From: Octopus vulgaris
Taxonomy: Eukaryota
Direction: 5' to 3'
Length of the DNA stretch: 64,000 bases
Assembly: GCA_951406725.2 (NCBI GenBank)
Contig: OX597834.1
Location: 1,984,001-2,048,000 of the forward strand
Shown here: positions 3,256 to 55,353 of the stretch, piece after piece
Position numbering within the stretch: position 1 is the stretch's first letter
Layout: each line of letters starts with the position of its first letter
Made by a program: the position numbers and the translations under genes
The notes under the pieces: generated by a model
Databases searched by the model: none
What the model was told of the DNA's origin: nothing
Seen by the model: the letters and a program-made list of their open reading frames with translations, nothing else

Positions 3256-3264
3256 TGAAGAGGA

Positions 3265-4260
3265 GGACAGCTGGATACTGGTGTACATTGACAAGAAGAG
3301 GGTTTAGCTATGGGTTCACCATTATCACTGATAATAGCTAATATATACAAGGAATACTTTGAGAATTTGGCTTTAGGATCAACACCACTAAAACCAACAC
3401 TATGGCTGTGATATGTTGATGGCACCTTCATACTCTGGCCCCACCAGGAAGATGTCCAAGTACTGTCAGATCATGTGAACTCAATAAAGCCATCCATACA
3501 GTTCACAATGGAAAAAGAAAAAACCAATCAGCTGGCATTCCTGGATGTATTAATAACACACACCAAGTATGGATTCAGGACATTCGTATACCACAAGCTA
3601 ACTTTCATTGGATGATACCTCAATTTCAACTCCCACCATCCATACAGTGTAAAGAGAGGGATTGCTCAGGGCCTAAAACAGTGAGCAATGAATATAAGCA
3701 GCGATCATGATACACACCATGAAGAAATGATCAAGCTCAATAACGATCTGTTAAGGAACAACTACCCCAAAAGTATACTATCCACTCCAATTAGGAAGAA
3801 AAGAGAGGATGAAACCGATAAACTGTCCACAGTCTGTCTACCCCATGGGAAAGGCCTCTCCGAAAAGATACAAAAGATATGCGACCCATATGACATCAGA
3901 ACAGTATTCAAGAGTAATACAACACTTCGCAAATATCTCCTTTGAGTAAAATCATCAATAGAAGAGAATATAACCAAAGACTGCGTGTACTCCATCCCAT
4001 GCAGCTGTGGTAGGTTATACAAAGGCGAAACATGCCACCCCCTCAAAATAAGGGTAGAGGAGCATTGCAAAGCTGTGACACGGGGAGATGTTGATAAACC
4101 AGGTATAGCTGATCATGTATGGGAAAATGGAGAGCACCTCCCCCTGTGGGATGAAGTTGAAATAATAGGCAGAGAACACCACTGGAAAATACGGAAACTA
4201 AAAGAAGCAGCACATATGCAAGGACACAACATCCTCCTAAGCAGACCAGGAGAATATTAG
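3265..4260 (+). mobile_element. Penelope-like element remnant: RT C-terminus + GIY-YIG endonuclease
   Basis: GLAMGSPLSLIIANIYKEYFE, WL*YVDGTF, IQFTMEKEKTNQLAFLDVLI, VYSIPCSCGRLYKGET...IRVEEH...KLKEA; several stops. Confidence 0.9.
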
Positions 4261-7858: not shown

Positions 7859-7897
<39 letters not shown>

Positions 7898-7901
7898 ATA
7901 T

Positions 7902-8340
7902 AAGGTGGCAAGCTTTCAGAATCGTTAGCATGCTGGATGAAATGCTTAGTGTATTTTGCCCCTCACTATGTTCTGAGTTCAAATTCTGCTGAGGTCGACT
8001 TTACTTTTCATCCTTTCAGGGTTGATAAATTAAGAACCAGTTTAACACTGGGGTCGATGAAATCAACTTATCCCGTCTCCCAACATTGCTACCCTTGTGG
8101 CAGAATTTGAAACCATTATTATTGTTATATAAGGTGGCAAGCTAGCAGAATTGTTATCATGCTGGGCGAAATGCTTAGCAGTTTTTCATCTGTCGCTAAG
8201 TTCTGAGTTCAAATTCTGCTGAGGTCAATTTTGCTTTTCATCCTTTCGGGGTCAGTAAAGTAACAGTTGAACACCGGGGTCAATGGGATCGACTCATCCT
8301 CTCCCCCAAAATTGCTGCCCTTGTGGCAAAACTTGAAATA
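7902..8340 (+). mobile_element. Tandem pair of tRNA-derived SINEs (family 1)
   Basis: AGGTGGCAAGCT..GAATCGTTAGCA..GAGTTCAAATTC..TTTCATCCTTTC..GGGGTCGA, (ATT)n tails. Confidence 0.85.
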
Positions 8341-9564
8341 ATTATTATTATTATTATTATTATAATATATAATAAGCATTTTATGTGTGTGTATGTCTTA
8401 TTGTTATCTATAAATAAACATCAATAAATGATAAATGATATAGACACACACACACACACACACACAAAACGCTTATTTCAAAGTTGACGGTCTACTCTGA
8501 GTTTTGCCCTCAGCTAAGCTGTCCACGGCTGTTACAATGTTTGCAATATGTGAAATATATTATTGATATACTTTACTACTGCTATATTATTGATAAATAT
8601 CAAAATATATATTTGCTTTTGTGTCATAATCTGATTTGATACCTGTTCTCTGCTCATTTATGCTTTTCTTCTGTTTCACACACACATTTTTGTCTTACGA
8701 CCTTATCTTCGGTATCATTATTATTTCCATTATTTTGTGTCTTGCTACTAGTTTATTAAGCGACTGATAATCACAACCTGATCCTATTTCCAATTCACAT
8801 CGACTGAGGCTTTGAATGTAACCTTAGAAACAACATTTCTATCACTAGCAACAACTTGCCCTCACCGTTAACTAGTCGGTCATATCGGCTCATTATATAA
8901 CCAAACCTATGACTCAGTTATACTGCTTGCTTATTATATACAATAGCTACGTGAAAATATACACCATACTTCTACTCAGGCTTTTCTCTATTGAGTGCTT
9001 CTTTTATTAATCTTTGTCTTTATGTAAATTTAGAGATAAAAACACAAGTGTGTATGTGTGTGAAAGACAATATAAAATCAAGTCTAGAATGAATGGTGCT
9101 AGGTATGTTTTTGCTTTTCTTTTTTCTTGTTTCATTTGGATGCTTATAATGTACAATTTCATTAATACACACACCCAGGGCATTACACAGTTTCTTCACT
9201 TTTGGTTAGTTTATGATGATGATATATATATATATATATATTGTGTGTGTGTGTGTATTAAACAGACAGCAAATATTTTTTAAATCATTATTTAGATTTT
9301 TGGAAATTATCTGTTTTTAATTTCTTTTGATGATGATGATGACTTTGGATATGAAATCTGCTTCAGCTCTGAAGAAACTGGGACCATTTTTTAAAAAGAT
9401 TCAAATATATGTTTAACATTTTGTAAAAAAAATTTTTAATTCTGTAGGAACAAAAGTTTAAATCCCATCAAAGAGAAAGACAAGTGTATCATAAGGCTGA
9501 CAACATTGGTTGTGTCTGGTTGATAAAATAGACATAGTCGTGGAAGATTGTTATTATTATTGTT

Positions 9565-19054: not shown

Positions 19055-19850
19055 GGCTTTCTCCATGTCAACGAAAGCTAAGTACAGAGGTTTATCTTTG
19101 GTTAGGTATTTCTCCTGCAGTTGTCTTACCAGAAATATAGCATCAGTGGTGCAAATCCAACCCTGGCACAAATCCAAACTACATCTCTTCTAAACTAACT
19201 CTCTCCATAATTAGTTGGGCTATGACCCTCTATGATCCAACAATTTGATACCTCTGTAATTACTTGTATCTAGTGTGTCACCTTTACATTTGTAGCAGTT
19301 GACTATTATGCTGCTACACCAGTCATTGGGTGTAACTCCTTCATCTATCACCTGATTGATTATACGGGTGACTAGACTATAGCCTACACTGCCAAATATT
19401 TTAAGCATCTCTGTGGTGATTCCTGATGGGTCGGAGGCTTTCCCTGTCTTCATACCCTTAATTGCTTTATCTACCAAGATACTGCCAGTTCGGATAGCTA
19501 GTCCTTCTGTTGGGTCAACTTTTAGCAACCTTTCCTAGTGGCGCCTCCAAGTCTCTCTCTTTTCAGCCTCATTAAATGCAAGTGAGCCATCATCCATGCA
19601 GACACATTTCTTTCCTACCACATCACGATTCTCTCTCACACACTGTCTTGCAACACGAAACACTTCAAGTCTTTGGTCCTCACAATGCAGAACATTGGCA
19701 AGTGTTTTTTTCTTGTCAGCTTCATCTGGAGCAAATAAAAATCAGTCAACAGTGGTGGTGGGCATATTGGAGGATTTTGGATGTACACTTGTGCCTTTTT
19801 ATACTTCGTTAGCAACAGGTACCTGCTGGCATTTAAGGAAATGTTTTTAA
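19055..19850 (-). mobile_element. RTE LINE fragment (pre-RT / RT start)
   Basis: KAIKGMKTGKASDPSGITTEMLK...PNDWCSSIIVNCYKCKGDTLDTSNYRGIKLLDH. Confidence 0.85.
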
Positions 19851-20573: not shown

Positions 20574-23108
20574 TACTTTGAATGATTTTTAAAGATTTAT
20601 GGAACAAAACTGTAAACCATAAGACACATAGATTGTAACGATACAGTTGAGGGGTCTTTGTAACGGCTTCTCATCAGTTGCTATTATGATGTAACCAGCG
20701 GTGATTGTCATTATACACCTATACCAAGGTTGTAATGACACAGATCACTGACTCTAATGACAAACCTCAGGTAAGGCCATTGCAACGTGTTGCTGCCTTC
20801 ACCATTTGTTGGTGTATTTTTGAGTCGTCCGGGGCCACCTGTCAGTCATAGTCTCAGTCAGTCCCCATCCCCTCGAGATACCTCCTCATCTGCTGCGGCC
20901 ATGTGGCATGTGGGACCAATGCAAGCCATCAACCCAGCTGGATCCTCAATGAAGAGAACCCAGCAGGGTTGGAAAATCAAGCCACATGACCTAAGGGTCT
21001 GAGCCCAACTCACTCTCAATTGATCCATTGGCATGGGGAGTTCTAATAGCTCCACAGTTGAGCAGCAATAAGAAAGTTTAACTTGGTCACCTCTGTCTTT
21101 GATCTGGAGTCTCAACTGCCAACTGATTCTTCTTCGCTTAGAAAGCCTGACCAGTCTTTCTACTTCCATTTTATCTTCATTGAAATTCAGATACAATTAT
21201 TTGGGTCTGTCTTTTGGACTTATTCTCTGATTCAATTGCCTTCTATCTCTTTACTGTGTTGTATTAGGAATTATATTAAAATATTTTGTGTATTATAGAA
21301 GTAAAACTAATTTATTGCAGATAAATTTTGAACACCAAAATCTCATCAGAAACTCTTGGGACCATATGGACCGTTGTTGAGAACCATTGGTGAAGATTAC
21401 GATTATATTGAGAATGTTAAAAAAAAATGGTTTGTGTGGGTGAGGAGTTTTGGGTCATTTTCCCCCTTCCTTCTAGCTCTTTGTAAGCGACATTTTAGGG
21501 AAATAGGTTTTCCAAGGGTGTAGTTTACACAAGGGTAATGGTTCAAGATGGTTCAAACATAGAAATATGAGAACAAAAACCAAATGGAAGAAATAGTTGA
21601 TGTAACAACATTGCAAGTGAGAACAGTGATCCAAAACGCCAAGCCAATTATTTTCTTTTCTCAGTGTAATTGTAATCTACACTTTTCAACAAGAATCTCT
21701 ACAAAATGTTATTTAAAAAATATATTTCAGAAAACCATAAGGAACTAAAATCTGGTGAGTGTGGTGAGCAACAAGCTGTAGATGTATCATATATATATCT
21801 ATCTATCTATGTTTGTTTGTTTGTTTTTATATTCAACTATAATATAAGCAACTTTACATTAATCTGAAGGGCTGCTCTATACTTTTGTAGGGTACAGATT
21901 TATTATTCTTGAACAAGATTATTACTGACAGTGACTTCAAAGTTTCAACCATTTCTCATCAGAATGTTTAAGTGGCTGAGACTTCCACATCCACTGTCAA
22001 TAATGTTCTACATCTTAACTGGGTGCCAAAATAATGTATGTATTGATATACATCTTTGCTGATCACCAAACAATGAAAACAGCTGCTGGCAGACAAAGTA
22101 GAGACTCAAAGATTGCTGCAATATTCGTTTTAGATTTCATATTCTTCCAAATACATTTCATTGTTTGTCTTTCTCGGTTCTTTTCTTTTCTTTTTCTTAA
22201 TTTCTGTTGTCAAATGTCAGGTAAAATAAGAGATTACCTTTCTTGTCTTTCTTGTTGACAAATGGAAACAAAACTGTTTGAAAACAAATTCCTGTCAAAT
22301 TTATTCTAAGATCTGCTTTGGCGTGACTTTGTAGCAAGTATTTTCTGTCATAGCCCCAGGCTGGCCAAAGCCTTGCCAAGAGATTTGTTAGGCAGAAACT
22401 GAAAGAAGCTCATCATATTATATATTTATTTATTTGGTGCTGCTCCCCGGCTTACCAGTTTTCAGTCAAACCGTCCAACCCATACCAGCATGAAAAGCAG
22501 ATGTTAAATGATGATGATGATATCCCCACCTTCTCAAAACTTGTCTTGCAAGTTACTTGGTGACCATAAAAAGCATCCAGTCCACACTGTGAAGTGGTTG
22601 GCATTTGGAAGGACATCCAGTTGTAAAACCCATGCCAAAGCTGAATTACCTGTGCTGGTGCTATGTAAAAAGCACTCAGCCCACTCTGCAGGGTGTTAGG
22701 AAGGGCATCCAGCTTTGAAAACCTTGCCCAAACAGACTTGGTAGCCTGGGGTAGTCTTCTACCTGGCCATCTCCTGTCAAACTGTCCAACCCATACCAGC
22801 ATGGAAGGCGGACATTAAGTGATGATGATGGTGTGTGTGTGCACATGCGTCTGTGTGTGTGTGTGTTTTGACATTGTGTGATACTTGTAAATGCATGTTA
22901 GCATCATGCAAGCGGGAAATATTACCTTAGTTGGCAACAGGTGAGCGTTGGTGACAGGAAGGGTATCTGCCCCTAGAATAATCTGTCGACAAATTCTGTC
23001 TGATTCATGCAAACGTGGATGTTTTAATTGGTGGTGGTGCCATGCATTACTGAGAACATTGGGGGAACACAGGTTATTACAAATCAAAAACAATGTAGAA
23101 ATTATTAT

Positions 23109-27700: not shown

Positions 27701-27961
27701 ATGGCTTTGATGCTCCCCCACTACATCTGCTCATGATCAGAGATGCACATATTGTCAACCACTAAGGGACATGTTCAACTGGTTATGGTCAAGCAAATCC
27801 GTGGTATTGAGCAGAATATTTGCTGTTATCCATCTTTTATACCAAGACAAAACAATGTACATGATAACACTTCCAATCAGTTAAGATGAGAAGCCATGAG
27901 AGCTACTGCCTGGTACTGCATCAGGGCATTTATTATTATTATTATTATTATTGTTATTATT

Positions 27962-28827
27962 AAGGTGGTGAACTGGCAGAACCATTAGCATGCTGGATGA
28001 AATGCTTAGCAGTATTTCATCCGTCTTTATGTTCTGAGTTCAAATTCTGCCAGGGTCGACTTTACCTTTCGTCCTTTTGGAGTCAATAAATTAAGTACCA
28101 GTGAAACACTGGGGTCGATGTAATTGACTATCCCCTTCCCCCAGATATCAGGCCTTGTGTCTTTAGTAGAAAGGATTATTATTATTAACTCAGGTTTTGT
28201 TGGAACTCCTTGCATGTGTAGTAGGCTTGCTGCCTGCAGCCTATGGTACCATGCTTTCTGTTCTTTTCAACAAATACGTTCCTGGTTACTCTGGCCTCCA
28301 ATTTCCTTTATATTCTTCTTGATGCCTTCTGATACTGTCCCCCAGGACCCAACAATAATTGGCAATATTTTCACCTTCTTCATTTTCCATAGCCGAGCAG
28401 TTTTGTACAGAAGACGATTGTGTATATCTATTTTTTTTGCTCTCCATCTTAACTATTCATGGGTCAAAGAGGCATATTATTGCAGAATCGTTAGCATGCT
28501 GGGCAACATATTTAGAGGTATTTCACCTGTTTTTACATTCTATTGACTGGCCCCTTCCCCCAAATTCTAGGCCTTGTGTCTATCATAGAAAGGATTATTA
28601 TTAAAGGCAGTGAGCTGGCAGAATCATTAGCAAACCCAGGCAAAATGCTTAGTGGTATTTCGTTCACCTTGATGTTCTGAGTTCAAATTCCACTGAGGTC
28701 AATTTTGCCTTTCATCCTTTGAAGGTTGTTAAATTAAGTACCAGTTACACACTGGGGTCAATGTAATCAACTAGCCCTCTCCCCAAAGTTTCAGGCCTTG
28801 TGTCTATTGTAGAAAGGATTATTATTA
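27962..28827 (+). mobile_element. Family 1 SINE cluster interleaved with an RLE fragment
   Basis: Three copies separated by (ATT)n; further copies at 13430-13600 and 63810-63975. Confidence 0.8.
28190..28450 (-). mobile_element. R4/Dong-like RLE 3' fragment
   Basis: Minus strand VKILPIIVGSWGTVSEGIKKNIKEIG; bounded by (ATT)n. Confidence 0.5.
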
Positions 28828-29128
28828 ATAGTAAGTTTCAATGTTGTTCTGTTTATTTCACTGTAGTTGGGTTGGCTTAATTTCCTCATCAATTTCCTTA
28901 CTCAGTGATTGTTCACATGACCAAACGGCTTTAAGGGTATCGCGAAAGGCCTAGTTGGAGGTCCAACCTTTCAAGTTTTTTTACAGAGCTAAGAAAAGCT
29001 GAAGGACCACTTCAGTTTCTCTAGTAAGTGTCTGATCTCTGAGAGGGGAATATGTTGGATAAGATCATAATTAACTGATCCTCCTGTATCTTCTTTTACC
29101 CCAAGCCAGGAACCTTTCAGAACCCCAG

Positions 29129-29188
<60 letters not shown>

Positions 29189-30047
29189 TTTGTTTTGTCT
29201 CATTTTTATATCCATTGTTCCATGCCAGTATGAGTGACACAAATATGTTGTTGAGCCATTGCTTTACAGTAACATGCCTTTCCTGTCACTAACCCTTACA
29301 TTCGAGTATGGGATGTCAGGATTTGATGTTTGGCTTTTTATTATATACTAGCAGAATTGCCCGGCGATGCTCGGGGCTGAATTGCTTGAAAGTACTGTTA
29401 ATGATTGCACTGAATTATGATGATTATTTAGGCAAATATTGATATTTGAATGTATTTGTAAGTGTATAGAAAGCCGTGTAAAGGGGTTCCTACCCCCTCG
29501 TAGAATGGTGTAAGAATTGAATGTGAGGTTGCCTTGAAAAGAGCCATGTTGTTCTCATAATTGTAAGAATTTAATAGTCGTGGAAGGCGGTGTAAAACGT
29601 TCGCAGGTGAATAGGGTCTCTTCAATTTCCACGAACGGCAGCGGATGTGCTGTTACAAAACTTCATGCTGTGTTAAAAGAGAATGGATGCCCTATGTAGG
29701 CAAGAGGGGAATGAAGCATGGGTAAGTAAATATGGGTAATTTATAAAATAAAGAACATGCATGTATATATATGTATGTATGCCTGTATATATGTACAAAA
29801 TCCACTGAGAAGGCTTTTGTTAGTTTGAAGCTACAGCAGAAGACACATGCCAAGTCACCACACAGTGGGACTGAACCCAGGACCATGTGTTTGGAATGTA
29901 GTTTGTTACCACACAGCCACACCTGCCCCTATGTATGTGTGCGTATGTGTGTTAAATATATTATGCATGTATAAATATATTATGCATGTATATATGTGTA
30001 TATATATATATGTGTGTACATATTACATGTACATCTATATATATACA

Positions 30048-30420
30048 TCTCTCTATATATAAACGGCAGTTTGTCTGTGTGTGTTTCTGTGTGTCTGTCA
30101 GGTTGTACCCTCACCCTGACCACGGCTTTCAACCGATTCTGATGAAACTTGACACACACATAGCCCAATGTCATAATTCAAAACTAACGCAGCGAAAATT
30201 TTGAAAAGTTCCCCCAGTTCTGAAAAAAATCAATAAATTCGACATGGGGTTGAGAATCAGAAACACAAACCACAGACTGTCTAGGGGACGCAACTCGACC
30301 TATTTAACTAAAAAAAAAAATTTACCATAATTTTTTTTCCATTTTTTGGCTATAACTCTCTAAAAATGCTTTATAGTTATTTCCCTTACAAACCCGAGCA
30401 ACGCCGGGCGATACTGCTAG
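30048..30420 (+). mobile_element. Non-autonomous Helitron, copy B
   Basis: A|TCTCTCTATATATAAACGGCAG...CCCGAGCAACGCCGGGCGATACTGCTAG|T; matches 916-1297. Confidence 0.8.
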
Positions 30421-31179
30421 TCTACACATAAAATACAAAATACAAAGTTATATCTTGATATCGCTAATGATAACAATACTCAAAATATATAACAGACTGG
30501 AATTGTAGGCCCGTCTCTTGCAATTTTGATCAATTGGATCTTGTCCTCCCTCTTGTATAGAAGTGTATGGCTGCAGCGAAATTCATTTTTGGACTTTCTT
30601 CTATCGAAGGCATTTTAACAAAAATGCTTCCGTAAAGACGGTGAAAATATTGTCAATTTCCCCATACAGGGACACAATTCAATTTTTAAACAATAACCAA
30701 AGCCCCTTCTCCGAAAGGGGAGGGTTACGGTTTACAATTATTTAACAAATGCAACACAACAACGTTTCCCTGACGAGGAACCAACAAATGTGATTACAAT
30801 AGTCAAACAGTAATAATAACAACAACAAACCTTTTTAATTTATCCCCATTTATGTGAAACCACTTGTTCAAGTCAGTGATGCAATTTTATATGAATTGTT
30901 AATACACACACACACACACACACATAATAAGGGTGAAAAATTGAATATTAATTTGATTAATATGAATTGAAAACCAGTGATATAGCAAATAAGACCATAG
31001 CGGATCTTCCTCTAGCAAAAAGGATGACCAGTATTAATGGCTCATCCCTGTTATATAAATACTTTCACTTTAATTGTTGCACACTTGCAAAGAGAAAGTA
31101 GGAGAAGTAATAGGAGTAAACCACTTGAAATGAGAGAGGGAAATCGTAAAATATTGAGTTTTCTCAAATGTTTGCTTAA

Positions 31180-31299
31180 TATGTATATGTATAAATATAT
31201 ATATATATATGTACGTATAAATATATGTACATATGTATAAATATATATATATATGTATATAATATATATATATGTATAAATATATATATATAACATATG

Positions 31300-31339
<40 letters not shown>

Positions 31340-31757
31340 CATGTATATATATATATATATGTACATATGTATATGTATAAATATATATATATATATATGT
31401 ACATATGTATAAATATATATATATATATGTACATATGTATATGTATAAATATATATATATATGTACATATGTATAAATATATATATATATATGTACATAT
31501 GTATATGTATAAATATATATATATATGTACATATGTATATGTATAAATATATATATATATGTACATATGTATATGTATAAATATATATATATATATATAT
31601 GTACATATGTATATGTATAAATATATATATATATATATATGTACATATGTATATGTATAAATATATATATATATATATGTACATATGTATATGTATAAAT
31701 ATATATATATATATATGTATATGTATAAATATATATATATATGTACATATGTATATG

Positions 31758-31798
<41 letters not shown>

Positions 31799-32057
31799 GT
31801 ATAAATATATATATATATATATATATGTATATGTATAAATATATATATATATATATGTATATGTATAAATATATATATATATATATGTACATATGTATAT
31901 GTATAAATATATATATATATATATGTATAAATATATATATATATATATGTACATATGTATATGTATAAATATATGTATATATATAAATATATGTATATGT
32001 ATAAATATATATATATGTATATGTATAAATATATATATATGTATATGTATAAATATG

Positions 32058-32137
<80 letters not shown>

Positions 32138-32243
32138 TATGTATATATATCATCATCATCATCATCGTATATATATATATATATATGTATGTATATATAT
32201 ATATGTATGTATATATATATATATATATGTATGTATATATATG

Positions 32244-32274
<31 letters not shown>

Positions 32275-32330
32275 ATATATATATATGTACATATATATGT
32301 ATATGTATAAATATATATATATATATATGT
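31180..32330. repeat. Compound TA-derived minisatellite, unit GTACATATGTATATGTATAA(AT)n
   Basis: Repeated unit with variable (AT)n length over about 1.15 kb; source of the spurious YI-repeat ORFs. Confidence 0.95.
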
Positions 32331-32725
32331 AGCTTTAGTCTTATTTTTATGGACTACCATATTAGCTTGGCGATAACTATTAATATTCAGTACCGCTGCC
32401 GTAATCTCCTTTAGAGAGACTTAGAAATTTTAATATTTCTATTTATGAAAACCAGTGGATGTATTCCATTGAAATTAGGTAAATAAATCCTTCGAACAGG
32501 CGGTTAGTAGCGACGCCTGCTGGGTCTGACTACTCTGCATTGATAAAGGGTAACAACCCTGAAACATGTCTGCAGATGTCTGACCCGCAAGGGGAAGTGG
32601 CTGACCTCCCCTGTTCGAAGGTTATAATGGACGCAGGTTCGCGATGGCCTCTTGGAGCTAATCAGCGGCAGCTTTAGTCTTATTTTTATGGACTACCATA
32701 TTAGCTTGGTGATAACTATTAATAT
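32331..32725 (+). mobile_element. Retrozyme / non-autonomous Penelope-type cassette, 339 bp monomer plus 56 bp terminal direct repeat
   Basis: 32331-32386 equals 32670-32725 with one mismatch; contains a hammerhead; (TA)n-rich tracts on both sides. Confidence 0.7.
32534..32576 (+). ncRNA. Minimal type I hammerhead ribozyme, U3-A8 core variant
   Basis: TCTGCA-TTGATAA-AGGG taacaa CCCT-GAA-ACATGT-C-TGCAGA: 6 bp stem I, 4 bp stem II, palindromic stem III, GUC site; predicted cut after 32570. Confidence 0.8.
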
Positions 32726-32740
32726 GTATATATATATATG

Positions 32741-32775
<35 letters not shown>

Positions 32776-33439
32776 CGCAGCGTACGTGCATAATAACTTC
32801 TTTATGTTTATCATATCACCACCCCTGCACGATGTCTTTAAACTATTTTCTTTCTTTCGCCATTGCTTCGTTGCCAAATTGTTTTGGCGCCTTTTTCTCC
32901 CAGCCTCTCTGATTCCTTCTCTCCCTCTCTCTCTTGGTCACTGCTTCTTCTCTGATTCCTTCTCTCCCTCTCTCTCTTGGTCACTGCTTCTGTCCTCGCC
33001 TTCCACCCTCCTTGGTCCCCTCTCTCTCTTAACCCCTTCTCTCTCTTACCCTCTTGCGACTTGCTGCCTCAGCCATTCTGTTGCCATCGGCTGCTTGTTC
33101 AACATGTGTCTTATCACCGAAAAGGTAATTATTTTTCCACGCTTGCTGATATTGTTTTTGTGCCTCTCTTTTTGTCTCAAAGCCGTAGGGCGCCTGTGTC
33201 ATCCATGTTTTTAACCGTTACTGTCTCCAAAAAAGATTTTTCGTTTCATGTTCGTCTCTGTTGCATTGCATTCTTTCCTTCTGTGGCTGGCTGATTCAGA
33301 GCGGATCTCAGAATTAAACAGCCGAAATCTGCGATGAGGGATGACTTTCTGACTGAAGAACGAAGGCTTTGAATGACCCGTTTGTCTTTTTGTTCGTCCC
33401 ATCGTGTATTTCACGTTATTTATTTACGTAAAGGTTTAT

Positions 33440-33571
33440 TATATATATGTATATATGTATATATGTATATGTATATATGTATATATATATATATGTATAT
33501 GTATATATGTGTATATATGTATATGTATATATGTATATGTATATATGTATATATATATATATGTATATATG

Positions 33572-33684: not shown

Positions 33685-34013
33685 CGTGACGCATATTTGC
33701 CATTTAAATATGGCTAACCCCTAAGGGTGGATGCTACTGTAGTTTGTAGCCCCAGGAAGATATCTCCTCCAGCTGGCTATAGACACACCATCTGTGTCCT
33801 CTCAGTATTTGTGAAGGGAAGTCATCCTCCCCGTCTTCAACTCATGATACACACGGACTCGAGTTTCAAGGTGTTTACCTCTCATCAGCGTGTGACAATC
33901 ATGGTTGTCGACGAGAAGTCAGCTCCCTTCACAAATACATATACTTTTTCCAGTGTCGATTGACACTGATATTGAAAAAGTGAAATCAAACAATGATAAA
34001 TCTCTGAACATGT
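33685..34013 (-). mobile_element. Hammerhead-bearing non-coding cassette in a (TA)n tract
   Basis: About 330 bp of complex sequence bounded by TA microsatellite; hammerhead at the tip of a rod closed by GTATTTGTGAAGGGA/TCCCTTCACAAATAC. Confidence 0.65.
33850..33894 (-). ncRNA. Minimal type I hammerhead ribozyme, canonical core
   Basis: Minus strand CACACG-CTGATGA-GAGGT aaac ACCTT-GAA-ACTCGAGT-C-CGTGTG: all core nucleotides present, palindromic stem III, GUC site; predicted cut between 33856 and 33855. Confidence 0.9.
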
Positions 34014-35007
34014 TATATATATATACATATGTGTAATGTATACACATGTATATTTCTAAGGTAGCCCATGGGCATCGTCACCTCATTTTACATGTCCCTG
34101 TAAATTTTAAAAATATAATATAGAAAATATATAAAATTGAAAAATTTAAATTATTTAAATTTAAAATAAAAATTATTAAATTATATTTATAATTTGTTTA
34201 AAAATATATATAACTATCAAAAAGTATTAAAAAGTTTAATATACATAAATACAGATATATACACTTTGTATATATACATTATATATACATATTTATATAT
34301 CGAACACTCACACACATATATAAATGAACGCAATGAATATCTGATTCATAATATTTGTTCTTATGATTGTGTGTTGGTGGTGGCGTGTGGTGATGATAAT
34401 TCTCCCTATGAATGCAGACAGATACATCAAAGAACGCCGTCTGACGAACTTTACATTAAATAATGGGAATGGACTTGTCAAAGTTATAAATGAAGGGGAG
34501 TTAGGGGGGAATGGAGGAAATAGCGTGAGTGAGGAAGATGGCCCCTAGCAACCACACCTTTTAAGATAGGGATTTCTAAGGTAGCCCACGGGCATCGTCA
34601 CCTCATTCTACATGCCCCTGTAGATTTTGGAGCGAATCGGACGGGACGTAGTGGCATTGAAAGCGATCCAAGCGGTAAAAACGCATTTCAGTTTTATATA
34701 TAGAGATATATATATTGTTCTGCACACTTTTATTGATTTCAGTTATTGGGCCGCAGCCATGTTGGTGCATTGCTTTTTGGCCATTTCATTATTTTTATGA
34801 AAATCCCAGATTTATTTTTACTTTGGTACTTTTATTTATTGGACAACTTATCACTTTGACAGAACACTCATCTTACACACACACACATATTTATATAAAC
34901 ATGGATACATGGAAAGTATATGAGTAGATAATCATGTTGTCTCTTTCCGTGTTCATTTCTTTCATATTATCATACACTAATGTGCATGTATATAGATTTA
35001 TGCATAC

Positions 35008-37560: not shown

Positions 37561-37667
37561 ATGCATTGTTGTGTGATGTTATCTCATAACACTAGAAGGA
37601 GAAATAATAGAAATAAGCAGTAGGCTTTTGGGAGTTTCTTGTGAATTGGCTGCTCCATATGTAAATA

Positions 37668-38161
37668 GGCACAGACATGGCTCTGGGGTGAGATGTTTGC
37701 TTCCCAACCACATGGTTCTGGGTTCAGTCCCACTGCATGGCACTTTGGGCAAGTGTCTCCTATAAGCTTGGGCCAACAAAAGCCTTGTGAGTGGATTTGT
37801 TTGACAGAAACTGAAAGAAGCTCGTCATCGGCACAGGTGTGGCTGTGTGGTAAGAAGCTTGCTTCCCAACCAACATGGTTTTGGGTTCAGTTGCACAACA
37901 TCTTGGACAAGTTTTACTACAACTTTGGGCCTACAAAACCTTGGAAATGGATTTGATAGATGGAAACTGAAAGAAGCCCATCATATATATTGTATGTGGA
38001 TATAAGCGTGACTGTGTGTTAAGAAGCTTGCTTCCCAACCACATGGTCCTGGGTTCAGTCCCACTGTGTGGCATCTTGGGCAAGTGTCTTCTACGATAGC
38101 CTTGGGCCGACCAAAGCCTTGTGAGTGGATTTCGTAGACGGAAACTAAAAGAACCCTATCC

Positions 38162-38228
<67 letters not shown>

Positions 38229-38430
38229 GTGTGTGTGTGTGTCTGTATATGTTTGTTTGTCCCCCACCATCGCTTGACAATCGATGCTGGTGTATTTATG
38301 TTCCCGTAACTTAGCAGTTCAGCAAAAGAGACTGATGTAATAAGTACTAGGTGTACAAAGATAAGTCTTGGGGTTATTTGTTCGACTAAGGTGATGCTCC
38401 AGCATGGCTACAGTCAAAATGACTGAAGCG
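37668..38430 (+). mobile_element. Tandem tRNA-derived SINEs (family 2)
   Basis: TGGTAAGAAGCTTGCTTCCCAACCACATGGTTCTGGGTTCAGTCCC...TTGGGCAAGTGTCTT...GAAACTGAAAGAAG x3; dispersed copies near 395, 29795(-), 40495, 43095(-), 48790(-) and 53040. Confidence 0.85.
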
Positions 38431-40380: not shown

Positions 40381-43300
40381 CCCACACGGGATCAATGCTA
40401 GATGGATGGAAACAGTAGTAGTAATTAATAAATATTCTTGTATCTGCCATCTTCCATTTCTCTCTCTCATTAATCGTTTGTGTGTGTGTATGCAGTCATG
40501 GCTGTATGGTAAGACGTTTGCTTTCCAACCATGGGCTCTATGGTTTAGCTGTGATGTACAAGACATTGGGCAAGTGTCATCCACTACAGCCCCAGGTTAA
40601 CCAAAGCCTTGTGAGTGGAGTTGGTAGACAGAAACTAAAAGAAACCTGTCGTGTGTCTGTCTGTCTGTCCCCACCACCACCACCCTTGATAACCAACGTT
40701 GGTTTGTTTATGCCCTCATAATTTAGCACTTCTGTAAAAGTTACTGATGAGTAAACTGGCCATATCCAGTCAACATATTCTCCCTGTTTTATGTTCAAAC
40801 TGACCAGATATGACTCCTCACACCTACCCAACAATGTCATTCCAAACTTAACAGTTATCTCCTAAAATTCTCAAAGCTGTCAGACAATACATGGCTAATT
40901 CTGAACAATGGGAGTAAATAAGGATTACATGGGACTGAAGAGTTGGTTCTTCCTTAAGCAAACTAATTTTTGAGTTTGGAAGAATTCGTCAAATTGACAG
41001 CTTTGTATCTTTGTCATTTTGTTGTTTATATCATCATCATCATTCAATGTCCAGGATCCAGTCAAAAGCATGGAGATGATGATGATCCATGGTGGGACGG
41101 TGATCCTGTCAGCATTATGCTCCACTCCCTGTTTTGGCATGGTATGCCATTCCTAATGCCTCATTGACATATTTTAAACTAGATACCTTAAAAAGTTGGT
41201 CAGTCTTGATCAAGCAGACATGCAATTAGAGGCACTCCAACCATGACCACTCCATCTTCCAATCGGGGTTTAAGATCTTGATAGGGTGACCTGTATACCA
41301 GGGACCTTGCTAGGTAGACTTGTGTGTTGTTAGGGGTTTCCTGTGGTGATATATATTTTTATTGGTTTGGGTCTTCTCAGAAAAATCTATAGGAATCTCT
41401 GATGTGGAGGAAGAGACAAAGTGTAGCAGAAATGGTAGATTAAATACAAGATAATGATGAAGTAGTTCAAAGGTTTTGTTGTTTGAAGTAGGTTTAATTA
41501 GAACAATTTAATTAATATTGCTTGATAGAGCAACTGGTTTGTCAAGTTACAATGATGTCTTGATTCAAAGTTTATTTCATACTCACACAATTGTACCCCA
41601 CCTCCTCTGCTAGTATTCTAAGTTCATGCTGTCATTGTCAGGCACTCCCCCCTCCCGGCCATTTATTGCAAAATTATCATACAGGAGAGGGAAATAAGAT
41701 TCTGTGGTGTGCATGATGTTTAACTATAAAACCAGTTCTGATCTATTTGACATATCATCAAAGACATTCCAATTACAACCATATCATCTTTATTTTCAAG
41801 CAAAGCTCAATGGGTTTAAGAGAGATTTGACTGCTATGTCTAGCAAATTTAGAGGATCCTTTGCTAAGTCAAAGTGTTGTGTGTTGGACTGACATTTCCA
41901 CGTTGTCACTTGGAAACTAAAATAAAGTTACAGACCCAACTTGCTGTGAACTTCCCTTTGCAAGGCTCTAACATTCAATTGTTCCAGCTACAGAGCGGCA
42001 CCTTGTAGTCCAGTCAGGGGCAAATTGTGACCCATGGGACTTTATGAATGGCATGCCAAAATTTTTTTTATAGTAGTGAATCTTGCTTGATGACGAACCA
42101 AGTCTTATTTGCCCTCTTCTTTCAAATGGTTGTTGATGCCTGTTGTAGATTATTAGCCCTAGATTCTTGCAGGTGCAAAACCCTTAGTGACCCTTAATGG
42201 CTCCAACCCAATGGATAATAAGAAGGAACTGGATCCTTTGATATAGGAAGGCAATTAAGATTTCTGGTTTCTTTCATACATTGTTAATTAATAATCAATT
42301 CGTTGACCATCCTGAGATTCATTCTGCTTTTCTCATCTCCTGAAATTGATAAAAACAAATACCAGATGTATATTGGGGAGAGAGGGGTTTGTCTCATTGA
42401 TATTTTTTTTTTTCCTTTCCTCCCTTTGTATGAGCTGGTGACTCTGCAGCTCCAACGAATCAATAACTACAATAGTATTGAACATACGAGAGCTGTGTTG
42501 GTTCAATACTAATTATTGATTTGTAGTTGTTGTTGTTTTCTCTGATATCGAATTATAAACACACAACCCAACTTGCCTCTTCAGCTGTCATGTTCTGTTT
42601 ACTAAAACCGCTGGCTCCTAAAGCCCTGACAGCCACTGATGAAATATATCACCACCACCTTCATCAGCGTCATCATCATCAAGCCAGCTTCCTATGCTTG
42701 CATCAGTTGGATGCTTCTCACACTCTCTTGTCACTTGTTATAGTCCTTCATAATGCAGCACGCAGTAACAGGCTTGAAAAAAAAACCCCACCTACTTTCG
42801 TTGTTCCATATATAAAATGACCAAAAATGACCGAGATGGCGAGTTCCCTGTTGCTGAGATTGTCTTTTATTCTTTCACTTGTTTCAGTCATTTGACTGTG
42901 GCCATGCTGGAGCTCTGCCTTTAGTCAAGCAAATCAACCCCAGGATTTGTTCTTTGTAAGCCTAGTACTTATTCTATCAGTCCCTTTTGCTAAGTTATGG
43001 GGATGTAAACACATCAACATCAGTTGTCAAGCGATGTTGGTGGGACAAACACACTCACAAATGCACACACACACACACACACACACCTATATGACGGGCT
43101 TCCTTCAGTTTGCGTCTACCAAATCCACTTACAAAACTTTGGTCAGCCCGAGGCTACAGTAGAAGACATTTGCCCAAGGTGCCACACAGTGGGACTGAAT
43201 CCAGAACCATGTGGTTGGGAAGCAAGCGTTTTAATCACACAGCCACTGATGTAGATACGTAACTGAACATGATTTCTGTATCACGGGTTTTCAGCCTGTG

Positions 43301-47350: not shown

Positions 47351-48743
47351 GGACCGTCAGGCCCTTGTCCTAATCTGTCTCTCCACTACTCAGTCTATTT
47401 GTTCATTTTTTGGTTGTTTCTCTTGACTGTGGCCCCTGGCATGTATAATCCAGGCTTGAGCAAGCTGTATTGAGAGGCTGGTCACATGTGATATGGCTCA
47501 TCTTTAGATGGGCCATGCTACTCAAAAAGAGTTAATCTTTTGTTAGGCATACCATTCAGAAGATCCTGTGGGTCACAAGTTGCCCCATGACTACTGGAGA
47601 CAAAAACCAGAATCTCTTTTGACAGAATAGAGTGGGAAATGTCTGTGTCCACTGAACCCTCTTGTTCATTTATTTTACTGTTTAATTAGAGATGTTGACA
47701 GTCTTGTTCGGAATGTTGTTGCTATTTCCATTTTGGTGGTTTATTTAAACCCAGGTCAGATCTGACACTGAAAGACGCTCCAGTCATGACCATCCTTCTC
47801 TTTGTATATTAGTTGTGATTTTGAAAGGTAGCTGACTGTATATTAGCTCCCTTGTTGGCTGTTCAGTGATATGTTGGTTCTCTCTCTCAACAATTTACAT
47901 ATTCACTTTTATTCTGGTTGATGATGATGATGATGATGTAAGTAGGAATGTAATCTGACCAGAATGTTAAATTATATTGCAGATTTAAAGAAAGCAATAG
48001 ATAGACCATGAGAGGGAGATTGGGGGGGGGCATAGTTTGTGACTGTTAAGAGATATTGGTAGGTTTGTCACACTGGCACTAAATTCTAATTCTCTCTCAT
48101 TCTGCATATCTATAATCACACACACTCTCACTCACTCTCTCTCTCTCTCTCAGTGTTATATGACTATCTCCTTCTCTCTCCTGTATTTGCCTTTGCACAG
48201 TGGTTCTGTCTTCCTCTCTCCCAAACTGAAGAAATCATTCAACCATAACTTCTATGCCAATTAGCCATGCTCCATTACCTAGAATGTTGCCATGGTTATG
48301 GTGATGTTGCTAATAACAAAGAATGGGCAATATAGAAATTGATGGAGATAAAGACAGTGATGATTATGATGATGATGATTATGATGATGATGGTTATGAT
48401 GATGGTGGTTATGATGGTGGTTAGTTGGCTGATGAGGAAATGTCATCTTAGTGTTTTATTTCACACACCTTTATGGAAATGCTTCTGTTGCTGTTAGTCT
48501 TTATGGACTTAGGTGTGTGTGTGTATAGTCTTTAATTCTTTTACTCGTTTTAGTCATTTGACTGTGGCCATGCTGGAGCACCGCCTTTAGTCGAACAAAT
48601 TGACCCCAGGACTTATTCTTTGTAAGCTTAGTACTTATTCTGTCAGTCTCATTTGCCAAACCGATAAGTTTCAGGAACATAAACACACCAAGTGATGGGG
48701 GTGGGCTGGACAAACAGACACACACACACACACACAAATACAT

Positions 48744-48789
<46 letters not shown>

Positions 48790-50181
48790 CTGGCTTCTTT
48801 CAGTTTCCATTTACCAAATCCACTTACAAGGCTTTGGTTGGTCCGAGGCTATAATAAAAGATACTTGCCCAAGGTGCCATGCAGTGAGACTGAACCTGGA
48901 ACATTGTGGTTGGAAACCAAACTTCTTACTACACAGCCACGCCTGTATATATATATATATCTTGCTGTATGTATGTGTGTCTGTACATGTGTGTGTATAG
49001 AAAGAATCATTGTTTTTCTCCCACTGATTGTGGAGTAGGCTATTGCTGCAAATTTATACATTATCTTTTATTAATTACATAGTAAGGAGTTCAATGGCTG
49101 AGTGGTTAGGCACATTGTTGTGCCTTCCTCTCACTGGCTCAGTCCACCTAGCTGCAAACAGTCAGAAGTGGATATTCTAGAACACCGAGGAATTTGTAGT
49201 GCTTCTGCAATGTTTGTGTCTTCTCCAAGGAACCGTTTCTTACGATGTTCTACTAACAAGGTGGGGATGAGGAGGGGGCATAGATTTTATGTTTCACCCC
49301 CTCGACTATTCTCTGACCCAGTGTCTTTTCAAGTACTCCGTCATTTGTGATTTCATTAATTTGTATAATAAGGAAAAAATTGTTGACATTTGGTTAACTA
49401 ACTTTGTCCTTTTAAAACTGTTTTTTGGATGACAACCAAACTAAAATAGTTCTGATGGAAGGTTTTAATTTTAAATATAAGTAGGAGATTTCGGTTGTGG
49501 TGGTCTTGGGTGGGTTGGTATGAAAGCACTTGCAGAAACTATTGAATAAATACTATGACTGATTCATGCTAACAGTTCCACTCACAATCAGAAACACACA
49601 CACACACACACACACAAGAACAATCCCACATGCTATCACGCATCTACTCACCAATAGTTACATACACACACATGCACAAAGATCCTCATACTATCACACA
49701 CACACACATCAGTCTATGTATTATCACATGCACACCGGTGCACACACACACACACACACAGAGTTCTAGATACTCGCACTCGCTGCTAACCTGGTCTTTT
49801 CTTCCTCTTTATCATCTCTGTCACCCATTCTGGTCAAAGTGACCAAATCTGTCCACTCCAGCCAGACAATCCAGCCAGACTTTCACACTCTACACAAATA
49901 TCTAGAAATATATCTCTCAATTCATTTACTGTTGTCCTAATAGGAAGCTAGGGGTGAAGATGGGTAAGTTACAAAACATTTCTACACACATCATAAAGCT
50001 AATCCCTTTAGAATGCTTCTATTAACTGTTGATTCCAACCCACCTCAGACCATCACTCCTGGTTCTATGATACAACCTTCCAGTTTATGTTCCAAACACC
50101 AACTAAAAAATTATTCTACAAAATTCTTCATCCTTTTCAAAGTTAATTGAAACAGTGTACGTCAACAAAAATACGGTAATG

Positions 50182-50315
50182 AAAAGCCAGGAACCTTTCA
50201 GCATCCTCTTACATAGTGTTATAACACTTTTAATCCAAACACACTTTAGTGAATGCCTATATGGCAGAGAGAGAGAGAGACATATGAATTTATATAGACG
50301 TATAAATTCATATGG

Positions 50316-50358
<43 letters not shown>

Positions 50359-50438
50359 ATATAGACATTCACTAAAGTGTGCTTGGATTAAATGTGTTAT
50401 AACACTATGTAAGAGGGTGCTGAAAAGTTCCTAGTTTT
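50182..50438. repeat. Long near-perfect palindrome
   Basis: Arms pair outward from CATATGAATTTATA-tagacg-TATAAATTCATATG through (GA)n/(TC)n to AGGAACCTTTCAGCATCCTCTTAC / GTAAGAGGGTGCTGAAAAGTTCCT. Confidence 0.92.
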
Positions 50439-51750: not shown

Positions 51751-54700
51751 AGAAAAAGAAGGTAGGATTTGGATAAAAGCTATTTAGTGTTTTCATCCTT
51801 CTCAGGGATTCATTATGAATGATTTCTTGTAGAAAATTCAGCCCTTTTATAGATGTGTGTTAGTTGAAAAAAAAAAATCTGCAGTTGAATTTGTTTTTTT
51901 AGATTTTGGAAAGAGGATGAGTCGAGAGTGATTATTTGAGATGTTTTTTCTCATTTTCAGCCTCTGTGTGTGTGGTGAATATATACATACACGCACACAT
52001 GATAACTCTGTATGTGTATGTACAACTCATTAATATATTCAAGCCCATACACACACGTATTATGTTGGCATGCAGCTTTGCAGCTGTCTCGAGTTAGATT
52101 TGCTGTCCAATACAGTTCCGCTCCATTGTCTTCAATAATAAGAAATATTGAAGGGAGAAACCTTAAGTTAAAATCTTCAAACTAATTCTAAGGATAACCA
52201 CAAGGAACTCTCTGTGCTGTTGCTAGAAATAGCAGCCAGTGGTCTTGTGTAAGGACCCTGCTATGTTAAAGATAAAGACATACTGTTGTTGTTGGCTTAG
52301 TTTTGCATTTGAATAAAGGATAGGATGGTCATTGCTGGAATGTCTTTGATCAAATGACTGCTGGACCAGGAGTGACTTGGGGCTAAAGAACAAAACCACT
52401 AACGTATGCTGGAAATTGTTCTTAGCCAAATGTTCAATATCAGCTTCCTTTATTACCAATCACTGCCTGCACCTCACACACACACACACACACACACACG
52501 CACAGACACACCACCTTCCCCTCCCCCCACCATTGGCTGTGTTCTCGTAACTGTGTCAGGCTCCGGCTGCTCACTCCTCTTCCAGTATGTTCTCTGCTGC
52601 TCCTGTTGTGCTTCTCTGTTAATACTTCACTGCAGTGTCTGTCTTTGAAATGTCAGGATTGTGTATCACCCTTTTACACCACCACGTCTAGCACTTCCCT
52701 AGCCCCACGCCACCTCTCCACTGCATCACCACTCTACTGCATCCACTACAGCACTCAGCCATTCTAACATCATTTTGGCATCCAGGTTTTCCCATGTCTG
52801 CATCATTGGATTGGGAGGCTTTTCTCTCCTCCTCCTCCTCCTCCTCCTCCTCCTCCTCCTCCTCCTTGTAAAGCCACATATTCACCACCCCCACCACCAC
52901 CACCCTCATCTCTTTCATGTGGTTCACCTTCCTCCTAAGCTCAGCTCTCACCTGTTGATTAAAGGATCGCTTTATATGGAGGGGGGTGGGCAGACTGTAT
53001 TGAGTACTTTTATGGTTGTGTTGCAATCTTTTATTTGTGTATGTGGTTGTGTGTTAAGAAGTTTACTTCCCAACCACATGGTTCTGGGTTCAGTCCCACT
53101 GTGTGGCACCTACAACACCCTTAGGCTAACGAAAGCCTTCTGAGTAGATTTGGTTGATGGAAACTGTACGAAGCCTGTCGTGTGTGTGTGTGTATTTATT
53201 TGTGTCTCTTTGTCCCCGACCACTGCTTGACAACCATTGTTGGTGTGTTTACATCCCTGTAACTTAGCAGTTTGGCAAAAGACACCAATAGAATAAGTAC
53301 TAGGCTTACAAAGAATGTCCTGGAGTCAATTTGCTCAACTAAAGGCAGTACTCCAGCATGGCCACAGTGAAAAATGACTGAAACAAAAAAAAAAGAATAA
53401 AAGTATGTATATATATATTGGTGTATTGTTTCTGTTTGTAGTTTTCCATCTCATTTGTTGCTGTTTTTGTTTGTCCGTCATCTCAGAGATCTTTCTTCTG
53501 CCAGAATGAGAGACAATTGGGGGCAGCTGACTGGACACTGGATCTGTTTTTGGTGACAGTACTTTTTGGCACTGGGGGGTACAGAAATATGCACAAAAAG
53601 GGGAGAGAGAGAGAGAAGCATTAGAACAAGGAAAACAGTGAAATGTCTGGTGTCAGATCAGTGAGAGGAAGAAGCTGGAACCAAAATGTCTGCTGAGGAT
53701 AAGTCTACCATGTTCGTTTCTCTTTTTTCCATTAATCACTTTCATGTTCCATTTTGATTTTTCATCACAAACCTACACCATCATCATCATCATCATTTAA
53801 TGTCCCTTTTTCTATTCTGTCTTGGGTTGGATGGTTTGACATGAACCAATAAGCTGGAAGGTTGTGCCAAGCTCCAGTGTCTGCTTCGGCATGCATTTTA
53901 CAGCTGGATGCCTTTCCTAACACATACAATGTCTACAGAGTGGGTTGGGTGCTCCAAGGATACTATTAATTACTGAATTAACCATTGTTTGGTACTAGGC
54001 AAAGTGAATATACAAGTGAGAATATATATTTTTGTGTAGCAAAAAAAAAAAGAAGAAAAAAATGGTAATGCAAGGGAAACAACTCATTGAAATGAAGTGC
54101 TTTTAAAATGATAGTAAAAAGTTGCCATACTAACCCAGTTGTTGGTGTTCATAGTTGCTTCAATCGATCATCTGGTGATGCATAATTATGAAGTAGAAAT
54201 TTTAAAGAATGTCTACAGTCAGTGAACATTTCAGAACATACATTCAGTCTGTTGTCATTATGAAATAATATCAATAGTTTCTCCTTTCTGTCCTTAAGAT
54301 TTGCTGTGACTGAAGTTCAATCATTGGGGTTTACATATCACACATTGTGTTTCTTTGCTAAACCATACATTGGCCAATGGAGACTTTTCCTGGATGGCTA
54401 ACCTATATCATCTCCATCATCGTTTAATGTCCATCTTCCATGCTTGCATGGGTAGGGCAGTTGACAGCCAGCCAGGTAGAAAAACTACCTTAGGCTACTG
54501 TGTCTGTTTTGGCAAGGATTTTATGGCTGGGTGCCCTTCCTAACACCAACCACTCCGCAGAGTGGACTCAGTGCTTTTTATGTGGCATTCTGAACTGTCC
54601 ATAGCAGTGTATCACTAATGAGTTGTTGTCTCGCTCTCCACTAATGTTCTGCAGACTATTTTTGACAATTGTCCAAAATTGACAGCCAGGAATTCCTAGT

Positions 54701-54942: not shown

Positions 54943-55353
54943 AAATGATAATAATAATAATAAGCTTAAGGCTTATAAACGTTTACCATGTATTGACTAA
55001 AGGAAATAGTCTAATATTGGGGCATATAAACCCTCAATGGAAAAAAGAGGGTGTCAGTACACATGGGCCTCGAACCCACACCTCTTATATTTGCAATAAG
55101 TGTGCTGACCATTACACCAACACTATGAAATTATAGCTCTTAAATCTAATGGAAAGAAGTGAGTGGGTAAGATAGTGTAATAGTTAGCACATTTATTGCA
55201 AATATAAGAGGTGTGGGTTCAAGTACCTTGCATATTAACACCCACTTTTTTTTCTTCCATTGAGAACTTACATTCGCCAAAATAAGACTATTTTCTTTAA
55301 CCAATACTCGATGATCACTCATAAGCTTTAATATTGTAATTATTGTTATCATT
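54943..55353. repeat. Inverted pair of tRNA-like elements, about 175 bp arms and 57 nt spacer
   Basis: GAACCCACACCTCTTATATTTGCAATAAGTGTGCTGACCATTACAC versus GTGTAATAGTTAGCACATTTATTGCAAATATAAGAGGTGTGGGTTC. Confidence 0.85.

Follow-up and report, generated by a model that had tools for sequence, protein, structure and literature searches.

A 395-bp insertion in the genome of Octopus vulgaris, in which a hammerhead-bearing unit is followed by a second copy of its own first 56 bp, raises the question of which template could have left slightly more than one unit behind. The insertion (element 1) lies in a 64-kb stretch of contig OX597834.1, referred to here as the window, whose internal coordinates are used throughout. 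We regard element 1 as a likely dispersed copy of a non-coding animal (non-LTR) retrozyme-type element, a passenger of Penelope-like elements (PLEs) reverse-transcribed from head-to-tail RNA.

Structure and setting of the insertion

31179..32330, unstranded: left flank of element 1, a TA/TATG-type microsatellite array (target), about 1.15 kb
32331..32725, + strand: element 1, whole insertion, 395 bp, 395/339 = 1.17 units, non-coding
32331..32386, + strand: 5' copy of the 56-bp repeat (additional partial unit, 5'-truncated), carrying C at 32371
32670..32725, + strand: 3' copy of the 56-bp repeat, its 3' terminus at the base of a weak hairpin (32698-32725)
32722..32725, + strand: ATAT common to the end of element 1 and the TA target, a possible primer-template pairing judged from sequence
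32726..32773, unstranded: right flank of element 1, a TA microsatellite of 48 bp

The 56 bp at 32331-32386 recur at 32670-32725 with a period of 339 and 55 of 56 positions identical, the single mismatch being C32371/T32710, and identity breaks off sharply at either boundary. This bears out a sequence-only reading, which had described a 339-bp unit followed by a repeat of its first 56 bp with one mismatch. Among periods of 60 to 999 across the whole 64-kb window, no other complex 56-nt stretch recurs with one mismatch or fewer. Element 1 has a GC content of 43%, and the longest ATG frames on a notional circle amount to 33 aa (+) and 30 aa (-). LTR elements are recognised by TG...CA ends, a primer-binding site and a purine tract; as read from the sequence, the repeats of element 1 lack TG...CA ends, and neither a primer-binding site nor a purine tract adjoins them.

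Neither a second copy of the element 1 sequence nor a tandem array was detected in the 64-kb window by blastn, by nhmmer with single sequences and with a two-sequence profile, or by a relaxed hammerhead descriptor. Bacterial and archaeal genomes gave 0 exact matches to the element, and phage records no match. The Rfam and profile matches in the element region are TA-repeat artefacts in the case of miRNAs, and at chance level in the case of DUF3577 (E 2.1). An active retrozyme is defined by a tandem of at least two hammerhead-bearing units at a locus. Element 1 has a single one, which makes it a dispersed copy of that kind and not an active retrozyme locus; with one ribozyme, it cannot by itself release a unit-length circle.

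The window is AT-microsatellite-rich and full of short repeats. TA tracts with their margins make up 3.8% of it, and element 1 and a second element described below (element 2) both lie between such tracts. The left-flank array is of complex TA/TATG/TACA composition, with a short TCA-repeat island at about 32150-32167. Any target-site duplication of element 1 is unreadable within the TA repeats, a difficulty likewise noted for microsatellite-targeting PLEs (PMC8557442). The four terminal nucleotides that match the TA target suggest primer-template pairing in this one case; a match of this type is expected at 4 of the 339 possible end positions on the unit.

A decayed open reading frame with reverse transcriptase (RT) and GIY-YIG parts, interrupted by several stops, occupies about 3250-4260 (+) of the window, and is by its motifs probably Penelope/Poseidon-like. 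Six of 15 candidate proteins matched, all six aligning there, and the only named one, from Octopus sinensis, did so with 76% identity over 71% of the query. A tblastn search with 6 PLE proteins gave no match in the window outside 3268-4251, and no RT and GIY-YIG frame in element 1. The GIY-YIG piece of the remnant was not recognised by Pfam. The remnant was rejected as a parent, as it has no sequence in common with element 1 or element 2 and no hammerhead beside it. Hydra and Naiad families of PLEs are listed for Octopus (PMC8557442).

The hammerhead and its extended stem I

32534..32576, + strand: type I hammerhead of element 1 found by descriptor search, with a predicted cut between 32570 and 32571 (after C32570)
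32489..32621, + strand: extended stem I rod of element 1, two 51-nt arms with 41 predicted pairs and a perfect 12-bp helix at the closing end
32395..32402 (with 32665-32672), + strand: 5' strand of an 8-bp helix closing the ribozyme domain, with pair probabilities of 0.93-1.0 in linear and circular models

The predicted ribozyme comprises a 6-bp stem I (32534-39/32571-76) with a 3x1 internal loop just outside it, a core at 32540-46 with a U3-A8 pair, stem II at 32547-60 with an A10.1-U11.1 pair, GAAA at 32561-64, and a palindromic stem III of 6 nt at 32564-32569. The core boxes with their 3-8 pair, the GAAA, a UH cut site and three stems with stem I open, by which type I hammerheads are recognised, are thus all present. 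The 3x1 loop may correspond to the tertiary contact of full-length hammerheads, and the Rfam consensus likewise has a stem I of 6 bp and a loop 2 of 6 nt with a terminal A. Canonical animal type I motifs have a stem I of 6 bp, a stem II of about 4 bp and a short palindromic stem III (PMC4209133), and require a dimer for efficient cleavage (PMC4209133, PMC6155905). The proportions of element 1 match these, and its anatomy predicts a real ribozyme. Its A10.1-U11.1 pair departs from the usual G-C of stem II (PMC4209133). The U3-A8 pair is a natural core covariation active in vitro (PMC3088659); it occurs in Schistosoma PLE-type hammerheads, and the 8-nt core of element 1 is also found in one Schistosoma family (PMC4209133 and supplement).

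Rfam reports no hammerhead in element 1 at either gathering or E-value level, which is a limit of the model for core variants and not a defining failure. The strict descriptor gave 0.03 hits per shuffled window, with thresholds set after the hits had been seen, and the loose one 1.26; among 100 shuffled windows, 38 had at least two loose hits, 3 had one strict hit and 0 had two. Core positions 5-7 are unpaired in only 27-50% of the predicted ensemble, and the open-core fold lies 1.7 kcal/mol above the minimum. The opposite strand of element 1 carries no antisense hammerhead core box.

Outside the 3x1 loop, stem I continues into the rod. Its helices measure 3 bp (32528-32530/32578-32580), 5 bp (32522-32526/32582-32586), 6 bp with one G-U (32502-32507/32601-32606) and 12 perfect bp (32489-32500/32610-32621), and all four stems named in the earlier reading are among them. 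The segment 32485-32625 folds at -68.9 kcal/mol, compared to -39.2 +/- 4.2 for shuffled sequences (z -7.06, 0/200 shuffles), and among 1825 tiles of 141 nt from the window only three, all of TA microsatellite, are more stable. The remainder of the unit is barely structured (z -1.6, 14/200 shuffles). When modelled as a circle, the 339-nt unit has a z of -5.2 (0/100 shuffles), with only 64% of its bases paired and a branched fold outside the rod. The closing 8-bp helix, which takes 3 nt from the 56-bp repeat, was considered as a sign of circularity and rejected, since it forms equally in the linear model. The rod itself had been taken as a hint of circular or tandem RNA. That suggestion did not hold: the rod is an extended stem I of 133 of the 339 nt, and because it covers only this part and folds identically in the linear 395-mer, it provides no evidence of circularity.

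A probable diverged relative 1 kb away

33685..34012, - strand: element 2, probable diverged relative, about 328 bp, no terminal repeat, TA tracts on both sides
33894-33850, - strand: hammerhead of element 2, canonical C3-G8 type I, cut after 33856, palindromic 8-nt stem III
33938-33805, - strand: rod of element 2, arms of 50 and 51 nt with 42 pairs, z -7.5, 0/200 shuffles

Element 2 lies 1 kb from element 1 on the opposite strand, facing it. Its hammerhead matches the whole of the Rfam model Hammerhead_1 (RF00163) with E 3.9e-5 and 28.4 bits, short of the gathering score of 34. The two elements have in common the 3x1 loop, the arm length, the palindromic stem III and a U before GAAA. Eleven pairs occupy the same offsets from the core in the two elements; 3 of them are identical, and 8 differ in both bases (including 5 of the 6 in stem I). 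Farther from the core the pair registers shift by one, and in two-sequence alignments the 3' arm is out of register by 2 nt. Such an alignment, at about 55-60% identity, scores 94, a value reached by 0/300 shuffles and 0/752 window tiles, and nhmmer gives E 0.058. Once the ribozyme stems are removed, the scores of four flank comparisons are reached by 72, 56, 8 and 245 of 1000 shuffles, so that the sole significant similarity outside the stems is in the upstream non-rod part (8/1000). The relaxed descriptor finds 8 distinct sites in the window, with rods only at elements 1 and 2 (-63.5 and -59.0 kcal/mol, compared to -11.6 to -21.3 for the others). These two sequences are probably distant relatives held alike by structure. 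Coding remnants are absent from both.

Element 1 ends 155 nt and element 2 ends 171 nt past the cut site, while upstream of it they extend for 240 and 157 nt, respectively. A terminal hairpin common to the two was rejected as evidence, as 1122 of 3174 tiles (35%) score as well; the sequences at their 3' ends show no significant similarity. Between the elements, a unique non-coding island at 32774-33440 lies between TA tracts and contains a perfect 43-bp tandem duplication (32906-32991). It has no other copy in the window and no clear open reading frame, and is possibly another TA-targeted insertion.

Template and mode of insertion

The cut site is intact within the insertion, which extends 240 nt upstream of it, and the template therefore needed head-to-tail continuity. 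A cleaved linear monomer cannot have been the sole template, and what is left is a circle, an uncleaved tandem, or a restart by the enzyme. The earlier proposal of copying from circular or tandem RNA thus stands insofar as an RNA-derived hammerhead insertion of more than one unit fits the anatomy, the TA flanks, element 2 and the published model, whereas circle and tandem are indistinguishable from one copy. We tentatively place the circle slightly ahead of the linear alternative. This slight preference stems from the fold predicted for a cleaved monomer, in which the rod pairs the two ends and would favour their ligation, and from the retrozyme RNAs of coral, mussel and axolotl, which accumulate largely as circles (PMC7229834).

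The following course of events may be envisaged. Transcription would start from a source locus with at least two 339-nt units, a type of locus absent from the window. The hammerheads, if active like those of published retrozymes, would cut the transcript, probably as dimers via the palindromic stem III, and the monomers would be ligated to circles, with the 51-bp rod clamping the junction and the weak stem III keeping the single ribozyme mostly silent. A putative TA-targeting PLE endonuclease would nick a TA microsatellite, the setting in which the element is observed, and RT would start some 155 nt downstream of the cut site, with possible help from 4 bp of target-RNA pairing, for which the 4-nt match is the observed counterpart. 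RT would then cross the intact cut site, finish the unit and run 56 nt further, leaving the repeat-unique-repeat layout that is observed. The RNA strand of element 1 would be the + strand. As helper, a PLE of the Hydra, Neptune or Naiad type is most likely. An origin of retrozymes from the ends of PLEs has been argued for, and of 9 Xenopus retrozyme dimers only a single one was cleaved in vitro (bioRxiv 10.64898/2026.07.22.740005).

The sequence-only reading had held that identical fixed ends among copies would speak against a circular origin. This criterion was ill-chosen: Penelope-type priming, even on a circle, leaves copies that share their 3' end and vary at the 5' end, and since elements 1 and 2 end at similar distances past the cut (155 and 171 nt), free circular permutation is not required.

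The same kind of element may also have been copied from linear RNA, the template being a tandem precursor that was left uncut, or else a single unit of RNA along which the enzyme began anew, giving a Penelope partial tandem with the 56 bp as pseudo-LTR. We consider this quite possible, its probability being contained in that of the retrozyme-type reading as a whole. Partial tandems with a truncated upstream copy are a normal PLE layout (PMC8557442), and uncleaved RNA was the dominant in vitro substrate of the Anolis PLE (PMC11167929). The rod and closing helix fold equally well in linear RNA, and the single repeat mismatch could be a difference between neighbouring units. Against this stand the largely circular retrozyme RNAs of coral, mussel and axolotl (PMC7229834), the retention of a long end-clamping rod in the very diverged element 2, and the lack of such a rod, as judged by eye, in the flanks of 20 nt given for the hammerheads of autonomous Hydra elements (PMC8557442).

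Explanations of other kinds account less readily for the locus. Any array can yield a piece of 1.17 units, and long microsatellites are unstable. A DNA-level origin was considered, in which recombination or deletion cut a hammerhead satellite array down to this remnant, or a small DNA circle reinserted; tandem amplification by unequal crossover has indeed been proposed for retrozymes (bioRxiv 10.64898/2026.07.22.740005). The clean junctions with TA tracts on both sides, the lack of decayed units nearby, and the same TA setting and similar end distance of element 2 make it unlikely. Similarly improbable is that element 1 is what remains of an autonomous PLE truncated at its 5' end, with a 3' untranslated region that happened to contain a 339-bp internal repeat. 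Most PLE insertions are 5'-truncated (PMC8557442, bioRxiv 10.64898/2026.07.22.740005), the hammerhead lies near the 3' end, and element 2, without terminal repeat, could be such an end; yet neither element retains a coding remnant or resembles the remnant at 3250-4260, and autonomous units of 2-4 kb cannot alone give a 339-bp period (PMC8557442).

The repeat-unique-repeat layout would also result if the 56-bp repeats were a long target-site duplication or miniature LTRs flanking a 283-bp insert, and retrozyme target duplications can exceed 4 bp (PMC7229834). This is very unlikely, given that TG...CA ends, primer-binding site and purine tract are missing and that the TA array would previously have had to contain an isolated complex 56-mer; the 3 nt which the repeat contributes to the closing 8-bp helix argue weakly in the same direction, as they suggest that the repeat belongs to the unit. 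Least probable of all is an endogenised viroid-like RNA with RNA-to-RNA replication, to which the size within the viroid range, the lack of an open reading frame, the hammerhead, the strong fold (circular model z -5.2, 0/100) and the extreme divergence with pairing kept would be suited. RNA replication has been raised as a possibility from the heterogeneity of mussel circles (PMC7229834). Nevertheless, the opposite strand has no hammerhead core (ribozyme classes other than the hammerhead being covered through Rfam alone), only 64% of the unit is paired, with a branched fold outside the rod (non-rod z -1.6), and in its weak palindromic stem III and its TA setting the element agrees with genomic retroelements.

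Age of the insertion

The repeats of element 1 diverge by 1/56 or 1.8% (95% interval 0.05-9.6%). On an Octopus divergence scale of 0.09 per 25 million years (PMC13282606), element 1 would be about 2.5 million years old (range 0.06-13), if the repeats were identical at birth and this scale applies. The young age that had been read from the high repeat identity is thus plausible but loosely bounded, resting on one mismatch in 56 positions. The family itself is old. The C32371/T32710 mismatch could have arisen in either copy, through CpG decay in the 3' one or by a change in the 5' one; CpG decay is not the sole reading because the T allele suits the terminal hairpin better (-6.1 kcal/mol, as against -1.5 with C, as at 32371).

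Other repeats in the window

Abundant SINE-like interspersed repeat families of 200-450 bp, 65-85% identical and in some cases arranged as head-to-tail pairs, occur at 7891-8354, 27944-28833, 37657-38430, 42859-43257, 48525-48960 and 53042-53403. The youngest dispersed repeat pair in the window is a 386-bp repeat in two copies, 92% identical, at 915-1298 and 30047-30421. A tRNA-like match of 29.5 bits at 55055-55124 (-) is probably a SINE head. Close to element 2, a 57-bp repeat (93%) at 34052-34108 and 34572-34628 has on the - strand a short hairpin and a terminal motif, to which an AT-rich start near 34705 corresponds, and resembles a non-autonomous Helitron-type element with two 3' ends. 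The piece at 19220-19534 (-), by its motif presumably a LINE-like reverse transcriptase fragment, has no Pfam match. Two further folded regions were observed, a near-perfect foldback of about 75 bp around a CT/AG microsatellite at 50222-50400 (z -16), and a stretch of higher GC content at 20840-21050 (-), in which a stable local hairpin forms but whose fold is near chance overall (z -1.9), within a 112-aa open frame.

Significance

Circles as templates for reverse transcription of more than one unit have already been proposed (PMC4209133, PMC7229834, PMC7761336), and the movement of animal retrozymes is still a model in these accounts, in which template and helper are not established (PMC7229834, PMC7761336, bioRxiv 10.64898/2026.07.22.740005) and no motif pointing to a helper is described (PMC7761336). 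No published cephalopod or octopus family of such elements was found in the literature, of which coverage was incomplete. New here are a probable cephalopod family, its TA targeting, hammerhead features in common with TA-targeting Hydra-clade elements, and the 4-nt junction match. One locus does not decide template or helper, and its value is as an entry point to this probable family: among dispersed partial-tandem copies in TA tracts, the 3' ends would indicate the priming site, the 5' ends and the identity of the overlap the template, and the TA preference would narrow the choice of helper.

It is possible to go further and picture small ribozyme circles that form an old and diversified family in cephalopods and spread as dispersed copies of 1 to 1.2 units and not as satellites. 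A TA-targeting PLE enzyme (of Hydra, Naiad or Neptune type) would prime the circle at a set site through pairing of the nicked TA repeat with an AU-rich patch, and the conserved 51-bp rod would keep the circle closed. We hold this larger picture to be rather doubtful. If true, it would name the missing helper of animal retrozymes, show that target and template pair, in contrast to what was found for the single PLE examined in vitro, and amount to genomic proof of circle-templated reverse transcription.

Comparison with known systems

Element 1 is neither an autonomous PLE nor an LTR/TRIM element, and viroid-like RNAs differ from it in having an antisense ribozyme and a rod over their full length. 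It does have the partial-tandem (pseudo-LTR) layout of non-autonomous PLE derivatives. Non-autonomous Chlamys PLEs such as MRC1 are like it in being short, in having pseudo-LTRs, for which they were once mistaken for LTR elements, and in targeting microsatellites; they belong to green algae, most lack a hammerhead, and they have 3' sequence in common with an identified autonomous partner (PMC8557442), whereas element 1 has none in common with the PLE remnant of the window.

The Schistosoma minimal hammerheads of Cercyon-type PLEs have the U3-A8 core and, in one family, the same 8-nt first box as element 1 (PMC4209133). Their stem I is short and poorly closed and their stem III minimal, in contrast to the 6-bp stem I, loop and long rod of element 1, and pairs on opposite strands, 100-700 bp from each other, are described among them (PMC4209133); the opposite-strand pair of the window is separated by 1.3 kb, and its two hammerheads have different sequences. 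The Anolis Poseidon element PAc starts RT internally, downstream of the hammerhead cut, at an AT-rich target, as proposed for element 1, and its priming in vitro is independent of ribozyme cleavage (PMC11167929). Standard RNA-seq revealed no cut ends of this element (PMC11167929). PAc is autonomous and starts about 85-92 nt after the cut, without target homology (PMC11167929), while element 1 ends 155 nt after the cut with 4 nt in common with its target.

Like element 1, Hydra-clade PLEs have (TA)n targets, a type I hammerhead near the 3' end and AT-rich last bases; their hammerheads are canonical, and their 3' end is fixed (PMC8557442). The distance between cut site and 3' end is 29-152 nt in 23 of 24 families and 354 nt in one (PMC8557442; two rows, an inverted duplicate of one family and a family with a 5'-end hammerhead, were dropped from this count), and the values of 155 and 171 nt for elements 1 and 2 are just beyond. 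A U precedes GAA in 16 of the 24 as counted by eye, as it does in both elements, and stem III is near-palindromic in most families (PMC8557442). Element 1 differs in lacking an RT/GIY-YIG frame, in its long rod, and in the U3-A8 pair, which is found in none of the listed Hydra hammerheads (PMC8557442). Hydra-1_Obim, from Octopus, is unlike it in hammerhead and 3' end, as compared by eye only (PMC8557442).

Compared to the animal non-LTR retrozymes of coral, mussel, axolotl and Xenopus (PMC7229834, PMC7761336, bioRxiv 10.64898/2026.07.22.740005), element 1 has 1.17 units with one ribozyme and no array, carries U3-A8 and U11.1, and lies in TA microsatellites of a cephalopod. Solo copies of retrozymes are recognised (bioRxiv 10.64898/2026.07.22.740005). 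Like element 1, these retrozymes are non-coding, with a GC content below 50% and one type I hammerhead per unit, and its 339 bp fit their unit length of 150-450 bp (350-390 bp in mussel; PMC7229834). They also have in common with it a weak palindromic stem III, a self-paired fold, the lack of LTR hallmarks and the presence of PLEs in the genome.
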